From contig OZ244573.1 of assembly GCA_965217845.1 (NCBI GenBank), forward strand, positions 688,806 through 752,805: DNA of 64,000 nucleotides, given 5' to 3'. Both the position numbers and the translations under genes were made by a program. Source of the DNA: Chloroflexota bacterium (GTDB lineage Bacteria; Chloroflexota; UBA11872; VXNJ01). Below are positions 19,324 through 46,261 of the stretch, in pieces (the stretch's first letter is position 1; the number at the start of each line of letters is the position of its first letter). A model generated the notes under the pieces. That model did no database searches. It worked only from the letters and a program-made list of their open reading frames with translations, and was not told where the DNA came from.

Positions 19324-19374
19324 CTCCGCCATCCCTAGAATGGCTAGCAAATGACAACTTAATATCCGCAGGGG

Positions 19375-19464
19375 TGCTGAAAGCATCGGCTGAGAAGGAA
19401 AGCTGCAGAAGGGCTTTCCTCCCCTAATGACCTGATCCGGGTAATACCGGCGTAGGCAGACGGA
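19375..19464 (+). ncRNA. TPP (thiamine pyrophosphate) riboswitch
   Basis: Matches the THI-element core: GGGGUGC...CUGAGA (19381-19410), a variable P3, and ACCUGAUCCGGGUAAUACCGGCGUAGG (19429-19455). P1 is closed by uccg/cgga. Lies upstream of ykoF-thiXYZ. Confidence 0.8.
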
Positions 19465-19579
19465 ATCGACCGGAACTTTCGCACCGCACCGCGACATCGG
19501 TGCGGTGTTGGCCTTTCAAAAGGCAGCCTCCCCGCGCGAGAGCTATCGGTGCCCTGGCACCGGGGACGGGTTTCTGCAA

Positions 19580-19867
19580 ATGACGGCAATCATCGCAGCT
19601 TTCCAGGTGCTTCCGAGCGGAGTTGAAGACACTTACGGTTGCGTCGAGGCGGCGATCGCGGTCGTTCAGGAATCGGGGTTGCCCTACGACGTCTCCTCGT
19701 TCGAGACCACGGTCGAGGGCGAGTACGACGAACTGATGGACCTGATCAAGCGGGCCCAGCAGGCCTGCCTCGACTTCGGCGCCAGTTCGGTTCTCTGCAA
19801 CATCAAGGTGGCCAACACCCCGGCCGGCACCACCATCGTCGATCACATCGGCAAATTCCGCGATTGA
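19580..19867 (+). CDS. ykoF: YkoF/MTH1187-family thiamine-binding protein
   Basis: ATG at 19580 gives a ~95-aa DUF77/YkoF-like protein (MTAIIAAFQVLP...YDVSSFETTVEGEYDEL). The longer ORF from 19505 would overlap the riboswitch expression platform. Confidence 0.7.
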   Translation: MTAIIAAFQVLPSGVEDTYGCVEAAIAVVQESGLPYDVSSFETTVEGEYDELMDLIKRAQQACLDFGASSVLCNIKVANTPAGTTIVDHIGKFRD

Positions 19868-20631
19868 GCGAACAGTTCAAGGACCGACTCCGCACGGCCG
19901 CTCCGGCGGCCGGCCTGATCATATTCCTGCTCTGTTTCTGGCAGTTATTCGTCACCTGGCGCGAGGTTCCACGCTGGCTCCTGCCCTCGCCCCTGGCCAT
20001 CGCCCGGGCGTTCGTGGATTCGGCCGACCTGATCGCCCATCACACCCCGGTAACGCTGCTGGTGATGGCAATCGGCTTTGCGACCTCGCTGCTGGTAGGG
20101 ACCGTGGTGGCCACGGTCTGCCACCTGTTCTCTCCGGTGCGGCGGGCGGTCTACCCGCTCCTGGTCACCTCGCAGTCGGTCCCGTTCATCATCGTTGCCC
20201 CGCTGCTGGTGATCTGGTTCGGTTTCGGCCTGCTGCCGAAGCTGGTGCTGGTCACCCTGGTCTGCGCCTTTCCGATCACGGTCACGTTCCTGGAAGGCCT
20301 GCGGTCGGCCGACCACGAAGCCCTCGACCTGCTGCGTTCCATGGGGGCGGGCAAATGGGACCAGTTCCGCTTCGTGCAGCTCCCGCCGGCCCTGGCCGCC
20401 CTGGCGGCGGGCGCCAAGATAGCCGCCACCTACGCGGTGATCGGAGCCTTGATCGCCGAGTGGCTGGGAGCCAGCCGGGGCCTGGGAGTGTTCTTGATTC
20501 GCTCGATGAACTCGTTCCGCGCCGACCGCGCCCTGGCCGCGATCGTGATCGTGGTGGCCATCGCCCTTATAGCCTGGGCGGCGATCGAACTGCTCACCCG
20601 CTGGGCGATGCCCTGGCGAGCCCATCTATGA
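19864..20631 (+). CDS. thiX: ABC transporter permease, ThiX-like (HMP/thiamine-precursor uptake)
   Basis: Polytopic NitT/TauT-type permease with the EAA-like loop. TTG start at 19864 overlaps the ykoF stop (TTGA). The N-terminal part of track ORF 19639.. is a GC artefact in a different frame from ykoF. Confidence 0.8.
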   Translation: MSEQFKDRLRTAAPAAGLIIFLLCFWQLFVTWREVPRWLLPSPLAIARAFVDSADLIAHHTPVTLLVMAIGFATSLLVGTVVATVCHLFSPVRRAVYPLLVTSQSVPFIIVAPLLVIWFGFGLLPKLVLVTLVCAFPITVTFLEGLRSADHEALDLLRSMGAGKWDQFRFVQLPPALAALAAGAKIAATYAVIGALIAEWLGASRGLGVFLIRSMNSFRADRALAAIVIVVAIALIAWAAIELLTRWAMPWRAHL

Positions 20632-20692
20632 ACCGATCAAGAGTTCTCGCACGCAACCGATCCATCATGACCCCTGACCCGGAGGAATACCC

Positions 20693-21739
20693 ATGAACCG
20701 ACGAAGATTTCTGCGCCTGGGGCTGGCCGCCGGGGCCACCCTGGCGCTGGCCGCCTGTGATACCAGCGGCCAGGAAACGGCAGCATCCGAGGACATCGCC
20801 GACCTGCCGGCGGCGGTACCGGCGGCCAGCCCCCGGCGCGCCGACCGGGCCGAGGCGACGCTGGTTCTGGATTGGGTCCCCAACACCAACCACACCGGCC
20901 TCTACGTCGCCCGCGCGCTGGGCTACTTCGAGGAAGAGAACCTCGATTTCAAGATCGAGGAACCGGTGGAGGTAGACCCCACCGCAGTGGTGGCGGCGGG
21001 CAACGCCGAATTCGGGATCGGCTTCCAGGAATTCCTCACCCCGGCCCTGATCGAGGGTGCCCCGATCGTCTCGGTAGCCGCCATCATCCAGGAGAACACC
21101 TCCGGATTTGCTTCGCTCAAATCGCGCGGCATCACCCGCCCGCGGGATTTTGCGGGAGCCGTCTACGGCGGCTTCGGCTTGCCCCTGGAGGAGGCGATCC
21201 TGAAGGTCATGATGGAACAGGACGGCGGTGACTTCGAAACCCTCGAGATCGTCGGCGCCGGCGCGGCCGATTTTTTGACCATCATCCAACGCGATGTCGA
21301 CCTCTACTGGATTTTCTATGGCTGGCAGGGAGTAAAGGCCGAACTGGAGGGGATTGAACTGGAAGTCGCCTTCCTTGCCGACTGGGGAGTCCCCAACTAC
21401 TACACGCCGTTGATCATGGCCAACGCCGGCCTGCTGGGTCGGCGCCGCGACATCGGCGAACGGGCCATGGCGGCGATCGCCCGCGGCTACGAGTTCGCAA
21501 TCGCCAACCCGGCCGAAGCGGCCGAAATCCTGATCCAAGCCTCGCCCGAAATCGACGTGCCGTTGGCGCACGCCTCCCAGGTCTGGCTCTCACCGCACTA
21601 CCAGGGCGACGCCCCGCGCTGGGGGCGCCAGCAGGGTTCGGTCTGGGGCGACATGACCCAATGGATGTTGGACCAGGGACTGATCGAGTCGACGTTCGCA
21701 TGGGAGAACGCCTTCTCCAACGACCTCCTGCCCGAATAG
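20693..21739 (+). CDS. thiY: NMT1/THI5-like substrate-binding protein (ThiY-like) with Tat signal peptide
   Basis: 348 aa with twin-arginine signal (MNRRRFLRLGLAAGATLALAAC) and an NMT1/THI5 periplasmic binding fold. Lies between permease and ATPase genes. Confidence 0.85.
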   Translation: MNRRRFLRLGLAAGATLALAACDTSGQETAASEDIADLPAAVPAASPRRADRAEATLVLDWVPNTNHTGLYVARALGYFEEENLDFKIEEPVEVDPTAVVAAGNAEFGIGFQEFLTPALIEGAPIVSVAAIIQENTSGFASLKSRGITRPRDFAGAVYGGFGLPLEEAILKVMMEQDGGDFETLEIVGAGAADFLTIIQRDVDLYWIFYGWQGVKAELEGIELEVAFLADWGVPNYYTPLIMANAGLLGRRRDIGERAMAAIARGYEFAIANPAEAAEILIQASPEIDVPLAHASQVWLSPHYQGDAPRWGRQQGSVWGDMTQWMLDQGLIESTFAWENAFSNDLLPE

Positions 21740-21752
21740 CACCAATCAGCTA

Positions 21753-22529
21753 ATGGCCGGGCAGCTGGTCCTGGATGGGATCGAGAAGAACTTCGGCGAT
21801 GCGGGCGGACGCCTAAACGTCCTGGCTGGCGTCAGCCTCAGGGTCGATCCGGGCGAATTCGTCTGCCTGGTGGGGCCCAGCGGTTGCGGCAAGAGCACCC
21901 TTTTTAACGTCGCGGTTGGCCTTACCGATGCGGACTCCGGCCGGGTTTTCCTCGACGGGGTCGACATCACCGGCCGCCGCGGGCTGCTCGGATACATGCC
22001 GCAGCGCGACCTGCTGCTGCCCTGGCGCAGGGTGATCGACAACCTCGTCATCGGCGTCCAGGTGCGGCGCGGCGACCTGCCGGCGGGTCGCCGGCGGGCG
22101 CGCGAACTGGCGCCAATGTTCGGCCTTGAAGGGTTCCTCGCCCATCACCCACACCAGCTGTCCGGGGGGATGCGGCAGCGCGCGGCGCTGCTGCGGACGA
22201 TCGTGAGCGGAAACCAGACGCTGCTCCTGGACGAACCATTTGGGGCCCTGGACGCGCTGACTCGCCTGGATATGCACCGTTTCCTGCTCGGCGTCCGCTC
22301 GGAATTGGACCTGACGGTGTTATTCGTCACCCATGATCCGGACGAGGCGGTGGCCCTGGCCGATCGGGTCGCGGTCATGTCGCGGCGCCCGGGAAGGATC
22401 GCGGACGAGTTCGCGGTCGAATTGGGATTCCCGCGCGACGGCAATGACGCCGCCGCCGCCGCCCTGGCCGCCTACCGCGCCCGCCTGCTGGCAGCGCTCG
22501 GATCCGGGACCGCGCCGCCGAATCCGTGA
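21753..22529 (+). CDS. thiZ: ABC transporter ATP-binding protein (ThiZ-like)
   Basis: 258 aa with Walker A GPSGCGKST, signature LSGGMRQR and Walker B LLLDEPFGALD. Confidence 0.85.
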   Translation: MAGQLVLDGIEKNFGDAGGRLNVLAGVSLRVDPGEFVCLVGPSGCGKSTLFNVAVGLTDADSGRVFLDGVDITGRRGLLGYMPQRDLLLPWRRVIDNLVIGVQVRRGDLPAGRRRARELAPMFGLEGFLAHHPHQLSGGMRQRAALLRTIVSGNQTLLLDEPFGALDALTRLDMHRFLLGVRSELDLTVLFVTHDPDEAVALADRVAVMSRRPGRIADEFAVELGFPRDGNDAAAAALAAYRARLLAALGSGTAPPNP

Positions 22530-38191: not shown

Positions 38192-39262
38192 TTAGAGATC
38201 GTCGAAGGGGTTGCCCGACGGTGGCTGCAGGTTCAGGCGCATGATCCGGGCCTCGGTGGCGGCATCGGTATTGGGGGCCAGTTCCTCCACCTTCTGCAGG
38301 TCGGCGATAGCTTCCTGGTTGCGGCCGAGCTGCTGGTAGATGTTGGCGCGGGTCAGATAGAGCAAGGGGATGTCGTCGCGGCCCTCAATGGCGCGGGTGT
38401 AACTCTCCAAGGCTGACTGGTAGTCCTGGCGCGATTCTTGGAGAAAGCCGCGCACGTAGTGGGCCTGGGCGTAGTTGCTGCTATCGGCGTACTCGACCGC
38501 CCGGTCTGAGGCCAGCGCCGCCGCCGCCGCGTCGCCGATCTCACCGGTCAGGTAGAAATTGACCGCCTGGACGTAGACCTCGGAGTCGGTCGAGTTCTCG
38601 TCGATGATCCGGCGCACCACCACCAGCGCGTCGTCGCGGCGACCGGCCGCGGCCAGCAGGTAGGCGCTTTCGAATTGGTCGAAGATCTGCTGTTCGCGCA
38701 GCTGCGCGAGAACGAGCGAAAGCGCCATCGCAAATACGACGCCGCAGACCACCAGCAGCACGGCCAGAAGGTTTTTGCCCTCGCCGCCGGCCCCAAAAGC
38801 CTGCAGGGTTGCTGCCGCCAGCAGCAGCGCCTGTCCCAAGGCCAACGGCCAGGGGGCCGAAAAAAAGACTGCTTCGAAGGTGAAAAGCGCCACCCCCAAC
38901 AGGCCACGCGCCACCAGATCCAGCTGACCGGGCAGGCGGTCGGGATGGCGCCGGATGGAGATCGCCAAATCGACCGCGATCAGGCCCGCGATCGACCAGC
39001 GGAAATCCTCGGTGAGCACCAGCGAGAGCACCAACCACAGGATGTCGGCGCCCAGCAGCATGAACTTGCCCAGCGCCAGCGAAATCCCGGCTTCGTCGTG
39101 CTCGTCCCGGATGCGCTGTTCCTCGGCCGTCGGCAATCGCAGCGAATCGGTATTGGGGTCCATCAGCGGCGGCAGGTCCCCGCCGCGCGGGTCCGAGCGC
39201 GAACCGCCGGCCGCAGATGTGGCCAGGACCGTCGGCAGGGGCGGTGCTAGATGGGCGGACAT
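38192..39262 (-). CDS. membrane protein with C-terminal tetratricopeptide repeats
   Basis: 356 aa with several TM helices followed by TPR-like repeats (AVNFYLTGEIGDAAAA ... ALESYTRAIEGRDDIP ... ANIYQQLGRNQEAIADL). Confidence 0.55.
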   Translation of the reverse strand: MSAHLAPPLPTVLATSAAGGSRSDPRGGDLPPLMDPNTDSLRLPTAEEQRIRDEHDEAGISLALGKFMLLGADILWLVLSLVLTEDFRWSIAGLIAVDLAISIRRHPDRLPGQLDLVARGLLGVALFTFEAVFFSAPWPLALGQALLLAAATLQAFGAGGEGKNLLAVLLVVCGVVFAMALSLVLAQLREQQIFDQFESAYLLAAAGRRDDALVVVRRIIDENSTDSEVYVQAVNFYLTGEIGDAAAAALASDRAVEYADSSNYAQAHYVRGFLQESRQDYQSALESYTRAIEGRDDIPLLYLTRANIYQQLGRNQEAIADLQKVEELAPNTDAATEARIMRLNLQPPSGNPFDDL

Positions 39263-39400
39263 TGGCTAAAGGGCGCTCGCTGGACCGGATCGGGCTGTGC
39301 GGCCGATTCTCGCAACCCAGAGTCGCGGAGTGGTGCGGCGGTCGCATCGCGACCGCATCCGCACCTATAATTTTTCGCAATTGAATAACGGTGGTTCCGG

Positions 39401-39527
39401 CTCTTATCCAGAGTGGTGGAGGGATTCGGCCCTTTGAAGCCCGGCAACCAGCGCGCTCGGTGACATGGTCCTTTAGAGCGTGGTCAGGTGCCAACTCCGG
39501 CGAGCTGCGAATTCGCAAGATAAGAGG
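39401..39527 (+). ncRNA. SAM-I riboswitch (S-box)
   Basis: Strong match to the S-box consensus: CUCUUAUCcAGAG-GGUGGAGGGA-GGCCC-UGAAGCCCGGCAACC...GGUGCCAA-UCC-GC...AGAUAAGAG, with P1 closed by 8 bp. It is preceded by TATAAT at 39366-39371 and followed by a ~225-nt leader containing a U6 tract (39571-39576). Confidence 0.8.
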
Positions 39528-39752
39528 ACACCACAACCATGTTCGATTCGGTAGAGATTTGCTTTTTTAGCCGCGGATACATGCCCGGCCCCCGCGACGG
39601 CGTACTCGGTCGCTCAAGCGGCGGACAGTCCCTGATGTAGAGCCCCGCGGCTTGGTGCGCCAACGGCCCTTCCGGCCCCGCGCACCGCAAGCCGCCTAAC
39701 CCCTCTGCAACCCCCTTACATCCATTCAGGACATCCCGAGAAATTAACTACC

Positions 39753-41006
39753 ATGGCCAATAAGGTACTTGGCCTCAAGTGCAAGAACTGTGCCGCGGTT
39801 TATCCGGCTGCCGCCCAGCATGTTTGCAATCTTTGCTTCGGACCACTTGAGGTCGTCTACGACTACGACGTCATCCGCGCCCGGATTAGCCGTGAGCGAA
39901 TCGCCGCCGGCCCCAACTCGCTTTGGCGCTATGCCGACCTGCTGCCCCTAGACAGCGGTTGGGAAAACAATGTGCGGGTCGGATTCACACCCCTGCAGCG
40001 CGCCGGCAAACTGGCCGACCGGCTGGGCTTGGGCGAACTCTGGCTCAAGAACGACAGCCTAAATCCCACCTTTTCCTTCAAGGATCGCCCGGTCACGGTG
40101 GCGCTGGCCAAGGCGCGCCAGCTGGGCTATGAGGTGTTCGCCTGCGCCTCGACCGGAAACCTGGCCTCGGCGGTCGCCGGCGCAGGAGCCCGCACCCCGC
40201 TGGACATCTACGTCTTTATGCCCTCGGATGTGGAGGCCGGCAAGGTCCTTAACGCCGCCGTGTACGGGGCCAATCTGATCGCCGTCGACGGCACCTACGA
40301 CCAGCTCAACCGGCTCTGCTCGGAGATCGCCGACGAGGAAGACTGGGCGTTCTGCAACATCAACATGCGGCCCTACTACGCCGAAGGGTCCAAGACCCTG
40401 GCCTTCGAGGTAGTCGAGCAGCTGGGCTGGCGGGCACCGGACCAGGTTGTGGTCCCAATCGCCTCCGGGGCCCTCTATACCGAAATTGCCAAGGGTTTCC
40501 GCGAACTGGTCGAAGTAGGCCTGCTGGCATCGCAGAACGTGGTCATCTCCGGCGCCCAGGCGGCCGGTTGCGCTCCGGTGGCCGACGCCTTTGCCAGCGG
40601 CGCGAGTGAGTTTGAGCCGGTCCGCAATCCGCGCACGCTGGCCAAGAGTCTGGCGATTGGCAATCCCGCCGATGGCAACTACTCGCTCGACGTCGCCCGC
40701 CGCACCGGTGGGGTGATTGAAAAAGTCAGCGACGCCGAGATCGTCGAGGCGATCAAGATCCTGGCCGCCGATGAGGGCATCTTTACCGAACCGGCCGGCG
40801 GGGTCACGGTGGCGACGCTGATCAAGCTGGCCGAGCGGGGCCAATTTGGCCGCGATGAGACGGTCGTGGCCTACATAACCGGCAACGGTCTCAAGACCCA
40901 GGAAGCGCTCGAAGGAATCGGCGTGGCCGATATGACCATAGCGCCAACGCTGGGGTCGTTTGAAGATGCCATCGCCGCCGCGGCAAACGCACCGGTGTTT
41001 GCCTGA
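39753..41006 (+). CDS. threonine synthase-like PLP enzyme with N-terminal zinc ribbon (MetM-like O-phosphohomoserine-dependent homocysteine synthase candidate)
   Basis: 417 aa with an N-terminal CxxC...CxxC ribbon and a fold-type II PLP Lys motif (FSFKDRP). It lies downstream of a SAM riboswitch and upstream of a MoaD-like GG protein. Confidence 0.75.
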   Translation: MANKVLGLKCKNCAAVYPAAAQHVCNLCFGPLEVVYDYDVIRARISRERIAAGPNSLWRYADLLPLDSGWENNVRVGFTPLQRAGKLADRLGLGELWLKNDSLNPTFSFKDRPVTVALAKARQLGYEVFACASTGNLASAVAGAGARTPLDIYVFMPSDVEAGKVLNAAVYGANLIAVDGTYDQLNRLCSEIADEEDWAFCNINMRPYYAEGSKTLAFEVVEQLGWRAPDQVVVPIASGALYTEIAKGFRELVEVGLLASQNVVISGAQAAGCAPVADAFASGASEFEPVRNPRTLAKSLAIGNPADGNYSLDVARRTGGVIEKVSDAEIVEAIKILAADEGIFTEPAGGVTVATLIKLAERGQFGRDETVVAYITGNGLKTQEALEGIGVADMTIAPTLGSFEDAIAAAANAPVFA

Positions 41007-41076
41007 GAATTTCTCATTGACAGCAATTCCCGATCTGACCCCAAACAAGACAGCAGCACCAAAGGAACAAGCCCAT

Positions 41077-41349
41077 ATGGCCACGGTGAGGATCCCGACC
41101 CCGCTGCGCGACCTGGTCGGCAACCAGCGCCGGATCGAGACCGACAGCGCCAGCGTGCGCGCGATGATCGACCAGATCGAATCGCAGCACCCCGGTTTCA
41201 AAGATCGCCTGCTGGGCTCCGACGGCGAGCTGTCGGCTTTCGTCCAGATATACGTCGGCGACGAGGACATCAGGTTCCTCTCCGGACTTGAGACCGAACT
41301 CGAATCCGGAACGCGGGTCTCGATCGTGCCGGCCGCGGCCGGCGGATGA
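41077..41349 (+). CDS. MoaD/ThiS-family sulfur carrier protein (C-terminal Gly-Gly; MetO/CysO-like)
   Basis: ATG 41077 gives 91 aa ending ...IVPAAAGG-stop, the beta-grasp sulfur carrier signature. The longer track ORF from 40960 overlaps the threonine-synthase-like gene. Confidence 0.75.
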   Translation: MATVRIPTPLRDLVGNQRRIETDSASVRAMIDQIESQHPGFKDRLLGSDGELSAFVQIYVGDEDIRFLSGLETELESGTRVSIVPAAAGG

Positions 41350-41922
41350 TTCAGACCGCCGCCCCGGTGGCGCTATGGCGGGCCGATCAGCGCAAGCCGG
41401 CCGAGTAGGCGGTTTCGCTCCGGCATTGTCAAGATTTGGGGCCTTCTTGACCGCGGAGCCGTCGGCATGCGGGCGCAAGACCCGATGGGGCTCGAATCGA
41501 TGATCCCGCGGGCGCTGGACCGGGGGCCCCGGTAATCATCGATGTGCCGATTTCGGAGACGCCGATTACGCGGGCCCATTTTCTGGCCTCGTTGCCCAAC
41601 CTGCCTGGGACGCACCCTCAGGATGGGTTGATCGCGCCCTAGGTTGGCCCGTGTCAACCCGGGCGATTGGTTAAATCGCAATCGGCACCGCGGCGCGTGC
41701 TTTCATCGCGTCCGCAGTTTTAGCGGCTCCGGGCGGGCTTTCGACTGTGCGGGCGCCGGCCTATTTACAACCGACCCGCCTCGGTCCGTCGCGCCCGCAG
41801 CCTACCTGGTCGGGTTTCTTGACAATGCGCGGCCTGCAGTTGGAGCGAGCGTGTCCCGACGGGTGATTGGATTGGAGATTCGAGCGGAGATCTAGCCAGG
41901 GGCGGGAAGAGCGGCAGCGTAT

Positions 41923-42200
41923 GTGATCGTGGAAGTCGAAATCACCAACCCCCAGCGATACGGCCAATTCATTGAGCGCGTAACGCCGACCGTCGCCGCC
42001 AAGGGCGGGCAACTTGTCGTCGGCGCGGGCGCGATCTCAAGGAAGTGGAGGGCGATTGGCATCCACCCCGGTTGGCGGTTGTGCAGTTTCCCCAAATGGC
42101 GCAGGTGCGGGCGTGGTTGGAATCACCCGAATTCCGGCAATTGGAACCACTTCGTAAGAGCTCTTCAAATCTCAATATCGTGGCTGTCGAAGGGGCCTGA
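41923..42200 (+). pseudogene. DUF1330-family protein, interrupted by a frameshift
   Basis: The N-terminus MIVEVEITNPQRYGQFIERVTPTVAAKGGQLVVGAGA matches DUF1330. The conserved continuation ...DLKEVEGDWHPPRLAVVQFPQMAQVRAWLESPEFRQLEPLRKSSSNLNIVAVEGA is in the +2 frame after the GC run at 42021-42036. Confidence 0.65.
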
Positions 42201-42430
42201 ACGCTAACTGGTGACAGGGCCAGTGCCGGACACGACGTGACCGGCGGCCGGCGCCGAATAGAACCCTTGGCCTATCCGCCGGCGGCAACGTCTGGCAGTG
42301 TCCCGGCTGGCCCGGATTCGGCAACAAGCGACAGTCACCCCCACGCCGGGAGCACGCGGGTGGGGCGGCGGCCTGGAGGGCGCTGATTTGGGGGCCGCGA
42401 GCTTCCTTCACGGCAACCCCTGTCCGAGCG

Positions 42431-46188: not shown

Positions 46189-46261
46189 GCCCCCATCGTC
46201 TAGTGGACTAGGATGACACCCTTTCAAGGTGTAGACAGGGATTCGAACTCCCTTGGGGGCA
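46189..46261 (+). tRNA. tRNA-Glu (anticodon UUC)
   Basis: Cloverleaf: acceptor GCCCCCA/UGGGGGC, anticodon stem ACACC/GGUGU with loop CUUUCAA, T-arm AGGGA-UUCGAAC-UCCCU, discriminator A. The 3' CC is encoded but not the terminal A. Confidence 0.85.

Follow-up and report, generated by a model that had tools for sequence, protein, structure and literature searches.

A SAM-I riboswitch followed by a conserved leader reading frame and hairpin upstream of a metM-like gene pair in Chloroflexota

How does a riboswitch for S-adenosylmethionine (SAM) reach a gene whose start codon lies more than 200 nt beyond the aptamer? The question is raised by a locus of a Chloroflexota bacterium (assembly GCA_965217845.1, contig OZ244573.1, positions 688,806 to 752,805 of the forward strand; these 64,000 nt are the window of this analysis, and coordinates refer to it), where a SAM-I aptamer precedes a gene resembling that of threonine synthase, ThrC. 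An earlier note, written from the letters of the window, had proposed a transcription-attenuation platform at a U-tract with additional structure in the 5' untranslated region or, alternatively, a small upstream open reading frame (uORF). The comparative data favour the alternative, as relatives of the window carry a 33-codon ORF in the same place and its end forms a motif that recurs across clades. As read from these comparisons, the leader runs in the order promoter, SAM-I aptamer, uORF, a large hairpin (H2), C-rich spacer and the gene pair metM-metO, and this order is conserved (Table 1).

The riboswitch, judged from its sequence, is genuine and ordinary as an aptamer. An Rfam covariance-model scan returned a full-length SAM-I match (RF00162, model positions 1–108 of 108) at 39401–39526 of the + strand, practically the interval proposed before (39401–39527), with 73.1 bits against a gathering score of 44.4 and E = 3.2e-15 for a search space of the entire 64-kb window. 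Helices P1–P4 of the four-helix junction and the conserved core are all present in the alignment; P1 pairs 39401–08 with 39519–26, and the match deviates from the model in the P3 loop, which has a 26-nt insertion, and in P2, which has one deletion. In the leader region 39340–39800, SAM was the sole Rfam match with E < 1, and no other credible RNA family was found. The TATAAT upstream, for which the earlier coordinates were exact, is likely the −10 box of the leader promoter; the sigma-70 scan missed it because it has no consensus −35. The aptamer lies 5' of the metM-like and metO-like genes on the same strand, and it is kept upstream of metM homologues in at least 100 loci, across phyla.

The start codon of the ThrC-like gene at 39753 was borne out. 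No in-frame start is possible upstream of this ATG, and the spacer between aptamer and metM is therefore 226 nt. Close relatives compared were the syntenic loci L001–L006 and L180/181 and Chloroflexota loci L087–L098 at 67–74% MetM identity; L098 is the sole close relative among the metagenome MetM matches listed, and P0002, whose contig begins 58 nt before metM, was left out of the leader comparison. A SAM-I aptamer was present in every close Chloroflexota relative examined, and the spacer measured 200–228 nt in all of them (228 nt in L001, 225 in L002, 200 in L004, 218 in L087 and L089, 213 in L091, 205 in L093, 202 in L095 and 212 in L096). It is therefore a conserved feature and not an oddity of the window locus. 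The leader had been called unusually long, which holds against Thermoleophilia-type loci (51–65 nt, with a terminator) and against Acidimicrobiia, where 4–12 nt separate the end of the aptamer from the start codon; among close Chloroflexota such a length is normal. The Acidimicrobiia homologues have no leader ORF and the aptamer abuts the metM start, unlike the window, where a uORF and a hairpin lie between. Their metM Shine–Dalgarno (SD) sequence is at the 3' end of P1, and control through an SD embedded in P1 therefore appears to be the platform of these related loci.

Table 1. Features of the leader and gene pair in the window, with loci of other lineages used for comparison
Feature	Location	Strand	Description or basis
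TATAAT, likely −10 box of leader promoter	39366..39371	+	direct read; same distance in syntenic L001, L002 and L004
Predicted P0b (AAUUGAAUA, 39379-87) and P0a (GUGGU, 39391-95), extensions of P1	39379..39395	+	folds with P1 forced
SAM-I (S-box) aptamer	39401..39526	+	RF00162
GAGGA, SD-like element of uORF	39524..39528	+	first 3 bases are the last 3 of the P1 3' strand; start codon 10 nt on
33-codon uORF, peptide MFDSVEICFFSRGYMPGPRDGVLGRSSGGQSLM*	39539..39640	+	33-codon ORF in the same place in L001, L002, L004 and L180
T6 run, Phe9-Phe10 codons of uORF	39563..39568	+	best hairpin before T6 −2.1 kcal/mol
uORF C-terminal motif S-S-G-G-Q-S-L-M-stop, general form [S/T]-x-G-G-x3-M-stop	39614..39640	+	comparison across clades
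Hairpin H2	39636..39709	+	basal UGUAGAG 39636-42 with CUCUGCA 39703-09; main stem 39647-60 with 39680-95
C-rich, G-poor spacer (rut-like) before metM	39696..39752	+	last 55 nt: 40% C, 9% G
metM-like gene, ThrC-family pyridoxal phosphate enzyme, 417 residues, N-terminal Cys-rich ribbon	39753..41006	+	PF00291, TIGR00260
metO-like sulfur-carrier gene, ThiS/MoaD fold, 90 residues, end ...AAGG-stop	41077..41349	+	PF02597; Gly-Gly from sequence
Acidimicrobiia metM loci L009, L010, L018, L025	aptamer ends 2471/2483/2479/1684		metM start 4-12 nt on; direct translational control
Leader with uORF starting MMAMP	L155:1090-1167, L161:1090-1155, L171:317-403, L172:1070-1111		after SAM-I and terminator: conserved ATGATGGCGATGCC (uORF)

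The uORF follows the aptamer directly. Its ATG stands 12 nt past the aptamer in the window, L001 and L004 and 14 nt past it in L002, where the ATG has moved by 2 nt and yet the length of 33 codons is retained; no frame other than that of the ATG stays open in every lineage. By a direct reading of the sequence, the ribosome-binding site of the uORF lies inside the riboswitch platform, with GAGGA overlapping P1. In the syntenic loci L180/181 the uORF is annotated by the collection's gene caller, and the sole difference between the window and L180 within it is synonymous. Peptide identity is low (27–21%), the middle of the peptide diverging fast. A phmmer search with the 33-residue peptide against 1.84 billion representatives retrieved the peptide itself and one true homologue of 33 residues (P0136, cluster mate P0138). 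The other 15 matches were discarded as low-complexity alignments to long proteins. An exact look-up of the relatives' uORF peptides in the protein collection found only the window's own peptide present.

The motif at the end of the uORF recurs upstream of metM. The nucleotide pattern GGN GGN N9 ATG stop was retrieved 17 times in 71.5 kb of metM-upstream DNA, in all cases 106–135 nt before metM, and not once in 690 kb of control DNA from the same loci. Its two Gly codons differ at the wobble position only (GG[CT] GG[ACT]), and the −2 residue is Ser (TCA/TCC) or Thr (ACG/ACC) across clades, with a Pro (CCC) in L091. This combination of wobble-only Gly codons and Ser/Thr exchange points to selection on the peptide, not on RNA alone. 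The N-terminal part of the uORF varies in length from lineage to lineage, between 10 and 41 codons. In L102 (59% MetM identity), the motif belongs to an ORF of 10 codons, which lies 3' of the riboswitch terminator and has a strong SD of its own, GGGAGAGGAAG. In the sister clade B (L087, L089 and L091), the uORF has 40–41 codons, starts with TTG 8 nt past the aptamer and ends with ...LGGS(D/A)GM-TGA. The uORF contains one conserved internal Met codon, which is the last sense codon, and no run of Met codons. Two other explanations of the motif were rejected: GGCGGA-N9-AUG-stop does not behave as an SD with a 'start-stop' mini-ORF, the hexamer being never GGAGG and varying at codon third positions only, and the peptide is too short and too variable for a ubiquitin-like GG carrier or a ribosomally synthesized and post-translationally modified peptide. 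Considering the comparisons together, a conserved and translated leader ORF probably exists.

The end of the uORF is also part of H2, whose basal helix includes the stop codon and the UG of the Met33 codon (AUG, 39635–37). H2 has a predicted energy of −39.3 kcal/mol (z = −5.4), and none of 200 shuffled sequences was as stable. Equivalent hairpins occupy this position in L001, L002 and L004, and most of their sequence differs (z from −3.3 to −5.1). In clade B, the TGA of the uORF sits 2 nt ahead of a GC hairpin and a U-run, which are terminator-like. The minimum free energy of the whole leader is unremarkable (z = −0.56). A pairing of uORF codons 24–26 with the metM start codon, proposed by RNAalifold, was rejected, being absent from single-sequence folds of the window, L001 and L004. 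The spacer that leads to metM differs in composition from the window as a whole, which averages 31% C and 33% G, and the C-rich, G-poor tract is compatible with a Rho utilization (rut) site. The SD of metM itself, GAGAAA, is weak.

A link between aptamer and uORF is predicted on the 5' side of the aptamer. Predicted pairing of the conserved 5' leader CAAUUGAAUA...GGUGGU would carry P1 across the SD and start codon of the uORF; in folds with P1 forced, P0b (39379–87) pairs with 39540–48 and P0a (39391–95) with 39530–34. The pairing GUGGU(C)/(G)ACCA(C/U) is recurrent in clades A, B and D, with modest statistics for P0 (z about −2).

We propose, with a probability of roughly 0.5, that SAM gates translation of the uORF and that a ribosome which has reached the end of the uORF governs the hairpin or the access of Rho. 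With SAM bound, P1 and P0a/P0b would close over the SD and start codon and the uORF would go untranslated; H2 would then stay folded and the C-rich leader bare. On such a bare leader, transcription or expression of metM-metO would be aborted, either via Rho or by H2 acting as a terminator or barrier, as its counterpart in clade B, which has the canonical terminator form with a U-run, appears to do. At low SAM, ribosomes would translate the uORF up to its ...G-G-x3-Met-stop end, where they would open H2 at its base and shield the RNA, so that transcription and translation could proceed into metM. The dwell time at the conserved C-terminus or last Met codon could add a second input, through the supply of Met-tRNA or through peptide-dependent pausing. 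A stronger version, in which [S/T]-x-G-G-x3-Met-stop is an arrest peptide or methionine sensor that keeps the ribosome on the final Met codon or the stop in response to Met-tRNA, methionine or SAM, is speculative and, in our estimation, rather unlikely. If it were true, the leader would be a two-input device for MetM/MetO, in which a SAM-I riboswitch and a translation-arrest sensor act in series.

Several observations count against the proposal that the uORF relays the SAM signal. In the window clade, H2 is not followed by a U-run. The accessibility of the SD, modelled with a constrained partition function and suggestive only, changes modestly, from 0.29 with P1 closed to 0.50 with P1 open, and the model predicts that P0b may mask the AUG of the uORF in both states. 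There is no third-position bias over the whole uORF, the differences between the window and L001 being distributed 10/6/8 by codon position, and by shuffling an open frame of 32 codons is not rare in a GC-rich leader (P = 0.3–0.8 per lineage). The sample is small, as the window clade rests on about five independent lineages; the motif is missing from clade D (L096 and L098), and L095 has a broken frame. In the latter locus (L095:2798–3004), a frame with the conserved motif, ...GTFGGIADM..., is open as far as a TGA that overlaps the metM ATG (ATGA), out of frame with the aptamer-adjacent ORF. Such an arrangement could have arisen by genuine rearrangement in the direction of coupled translation, or it could reflect a homopolymer indel that a long-read assembly left in the U-run.

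The strongest competitor keeps the riboswitch and leaves the uORF untranslated. Under it, the conserved AUGUAGAG, CGGCGG, H2 and P0 would be RNA structures or binding sites, and on this untranslated RNA the riboswitch would operate through long-range refolding, cleavage by an RNase or the loading of Rho. The conserved AUG-UAG-AG is indeed one strand of the H2 basal helix, in which a U-G becomes U-A in L002, and folds place the conserved N-terminal codons AUGUUCGAUU opposite the 5' leader; the overall conservation of the peptide is weak, open frames are not rare by chance, and a SAM-I platform that binds tRNA-fMet exists in Xanthomonas (PMC7270179). Nevertheless, the wobble-only variation of Gly-Gly and the Ser/Thr swap at −2 are hard to explain by RNA. 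The 33-codon length and frame are retained despite a shifted ATG, and the 10-codon version of L102 comes with a strong SD of its own. No hairpin at CGGCGG is consistent across clades. We regard an untranslated leader as unlikely, with some weight left to it because AUG-UAG is also a helix strand and the overall constraint on the peptide is weak.

A classical S-box attenuator, in which a terminator would form at T6 upon SAM binding while the rest of the leader is a passive structured 5' untranslated region, would have its models close by: relatives at 54–74% MetM identity possess canonical intrinsic terminators 20–60 nt 3' of the aptamer, L002 has a possible CCGCUG/CAGCGG stem ahead of a U6 run, and the T6 in the window and L001 could be a remnant. 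However, the best stem that ends at T6 is predicted at −2.1 kcal/mol in the window and −3.8 kcal/mol in L001, compared with −12 to −19 kcal/mol for the relatives' real terminators, and a consensus scan of the + strand was negative for terminators. L004 lacks any U-run at this position, and the conserved uORF length, the C-terminal motif and H2 would all be left unexplained. The U6 tract had been placed at 39571–39576, 8 nt downstream of its actual position. By these fold predictions the T6 run is not a terminator tail, and the transcription-attenuation platform of the earlier note is not located there; the lineage of the window, as far as stems and scan tell, has no intrinsic terminator behind the aptamer, and classical attenuation is improbable. 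It is very improbable that metM-metO has an independent promoter 3' of T6, with riboswitch control absent or partial. The interval of about 185 nt would be long enough for one, and nothing else speaks in its favour; the scan detected no sigma-70-like site in 39000–42000, the interval is filled by the conserved uORF, H2 and C-rich tract, and the SAM-I aptamer is kept upstream of metM across phyla.

What occupies the same slot in other lineages is the chief indirect reason to see a second sensor, and not filler, in the uORF and hairpin of the window: there, the stretch from the SAM-I module to metM contains devices that would be expected to report on methionine or Met-tRNA. Upstream of the metM homologues of L011 (1979–2460) and L037 (1914–2427), SAM-I and a terminator are followed by a T-box. 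Both T-box matches score below the gathering score of 93 (83.6 bits, E = 1e-18, in L011; 69.1 bits, E = 7e-15, in L037), and the GAA-N-AUG-A at the specifier position in both suggests Met T-boxes. In four further loci (Table 1), the uORF that starts with MMAMP lies immediately 5' of a strong GCCCCGAC/GUCGGGGC hairpin, with ORF lengths that vary by locus; the arrangement resembles a leader peptide attenuator rich in Met codons. The loci form a natural experiment in platform swapping, in which the same aptamer appears with a direct ribosome-binding site, a terminator, a T-box, a Met-rich uORF or a GG-x3-M uORF. If the arrest-peptide version were correct, its module would be interchangeable in function with the Met T-box and the Met-rich uORF of these lineages. 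Two more RNA elements were detected in the same loci. L037 contains a second T-box at 4196–4622 (104.3 bits, above gathering), 3' of the metM homologue, which presumably controls the next gene, and L171 contains a c-di-AMP (cyclic di-adenosine monophosphate) riboswitch at 2607–2748 (83.4 bits), about 1 kb 3' of the metM homologue.

Parts of this arrangement have parallels in known systems. With the SAM-I riboswitches (RF00162) of the Bacillus subtilis yitJ and metE leaders, the locus shares a full-length, near-consensus aptamer and methionine biosynthesis genes on the same strand; unlike in those leaders, the window lineage has no terminator/antiterminator, and the aptamer is followed directly by a leader ORF of 33 codons instead of the regulated gene. 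TnaC of the tna operon and SpeFL, upstream of speF, are attenuators in which arrest peptides act close to the stop codon. The candidate uORF resembles them in being a short leader ORF with conserved residues at the C-terminus beside the stop and a long spacer before the gene (112 nt in the window, the last ~55 nt C-rich) where Rho could act. It differs in that there is no sequence similarity, the N-terminal length ranges from 10 to 41 codons between lineages, and stalling or a ligand is hypothetical in the window. Unlike the classical trp, his and thr attenuators, it has no stretch of codons specifying the regulating amino acid and no U-run terminator at H2.

In Mycobacterium tuberculosis, riboswitch-controlled uORFs are represented by the B12 riboswitch with the ppe2 uORF (PMC11260477) and by the Mbox with the rv1805A uORF and Rho-dependent termination (PMC12810186); both involve Rho, and they are the nearest analogues studied by experiment. 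By analogy, the window would share with these a translational platform on a small conserved upstream ORF that relays the effect to the main gene by way of its translation and of premature termination. In contrast to the mycobacterial cases, the ligand is SAM, the phylum is another one, and the G-G-x3-M-stop end is embedded in a large hairpin. Tandem arrangements of riboswitches and T-boxes have been surveyed (PMC12452182), and a dual-input SAM-I element of Xanthomonas senses both SAM and tRNA-fMet (PMC7270179). These systems, like L011 and L037 with their AUG-specifier T-boxes, place two sensors in series on methionine genes, whereas the second module of the window is a candidate translated ORF with a hairpin and not a tRNA-binding RNA.

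No description of a platform with an aptamer-adjacent 33-codon ORF and a C-terminal motif in a hairpin was found in Rfam or in full-text searches of a paper library. The new element, as these comparisons present it, is this conserved expression platform, a leader ORF of 33 codons whose C-terminal motif is held within a conserved hairpin. The textbook SAM-I riboswitch is a terminator switch; if our proposal is correct, the terminator has been replaced in one lineage by a riboswitch-gated leader ORF, and the mycobacterial riboswitch-uORF logic would extend to a new ligand and a new phylum. The locus would also be a compact case of serial sensors, with SAM read by RNA and the methionine or translation status by a leader peptide.

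The gene pair under this leader matches the MetM/MetO architecture, a ThrC-like enzyme accompanied by a ThiS/MoaD-fold protein with a Gly-Gly end. In profile searches, the metM-like protein aligned with PF00291 (246.8 bits) and TIGR00260 (280.5 bits). No HMM (hidden Markov model) dedicated to MetM was found in Pfam or NCBIfam, which explains why the protein of the window scores as 'threonine synthase', and membership in MetM/MetO is therefore based on architecture and context. The closest metM homologues carry a Chloroflexota annotation. The relatives found in the PDB are all threonine synthases, and their matches begin around residue 55, the first ~55 residues being absent. Residues C10, C13, H23 and C25 are invariant in 20 homologues, and the N-terminal Cys-rich ribbon (residues 1–33, window 39753–39850), absent from crystallized threonine synthases, could serve as a marker of MetM versus ThrC. 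The metO-like gene starts 70 nt 3' of metM, and its product matched PF02597 with 48 bits; its matches to the MoaD/SAMP1-type models of NCBIfam were under the cut-offs. A ThiS-fold gene was found 3' of metM in all syntenic loci except the low-coverage contig L179.

According to papers that cite the original work, MetM/MetO of Streptomyces albulus form a thiocarboxylate-dependent route from O-phosphohomoserine to homocysteine, and a SAM riboswitch lies upstream of metM (Hasebe et al. 2024, AEM, doi 10.1128/aem.01247-24, as related in PMC12172450 and bioRxiv 10.1101/2024.10.14.618325). The window thus has, on the evidence of those citing accounts, the same gene pair and the same class of riboswitch ligand upstream, in a different phylum, Chloroflexota. 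That a SAM riboswitch is linked to a ThrC-like gene has been in print since 2024 and is therefore not new. MetM is commonly misannotated as threonine synthase, as the GapMind preprint points out (bioRxiv 10.1101/2024.10.14.618325), and the locus adds Chloroflexota examples to a route whose enzymes are routinely annotated in this way. Given the adjoining ThiS/MoaD-fold GG protein and the Streptomyces parallel, the ThrC-like gene very probably encodes a methionine-pathway, homocysteine-forming enzyme and not a threonine synthase; a role in methionine biosynthesis had been proposed in the earlier note.

Between metO and a gene with a Cache domain (41350–42430), the window has no long ORF, and only a truncated match to DUF1330 was retrieved at 41923–42204 (profile positions 4–41 of 94). 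The counterpart of this interval in L001 encodes a 562-residue enzyme dependent on thiamine pyrophosphate (TPP) and contains an intact DUF1330 gene. In the genome of the window, the interval looks like a deletion or a gene remnant.

Elsewhere in the window, a TPP riboswitch (66.4 bits) was detected at 19360–19476, upstream of an ABC transporter operon (19581–22529). This operon encodes a permease, an NMT1/THI5-like binding protein and an ATPase (ThiXYZ-like), and a short ORF from an ATG at 19581 precedes the permease. A tRNA gene was found at 46189–46261 (58.9 bits).

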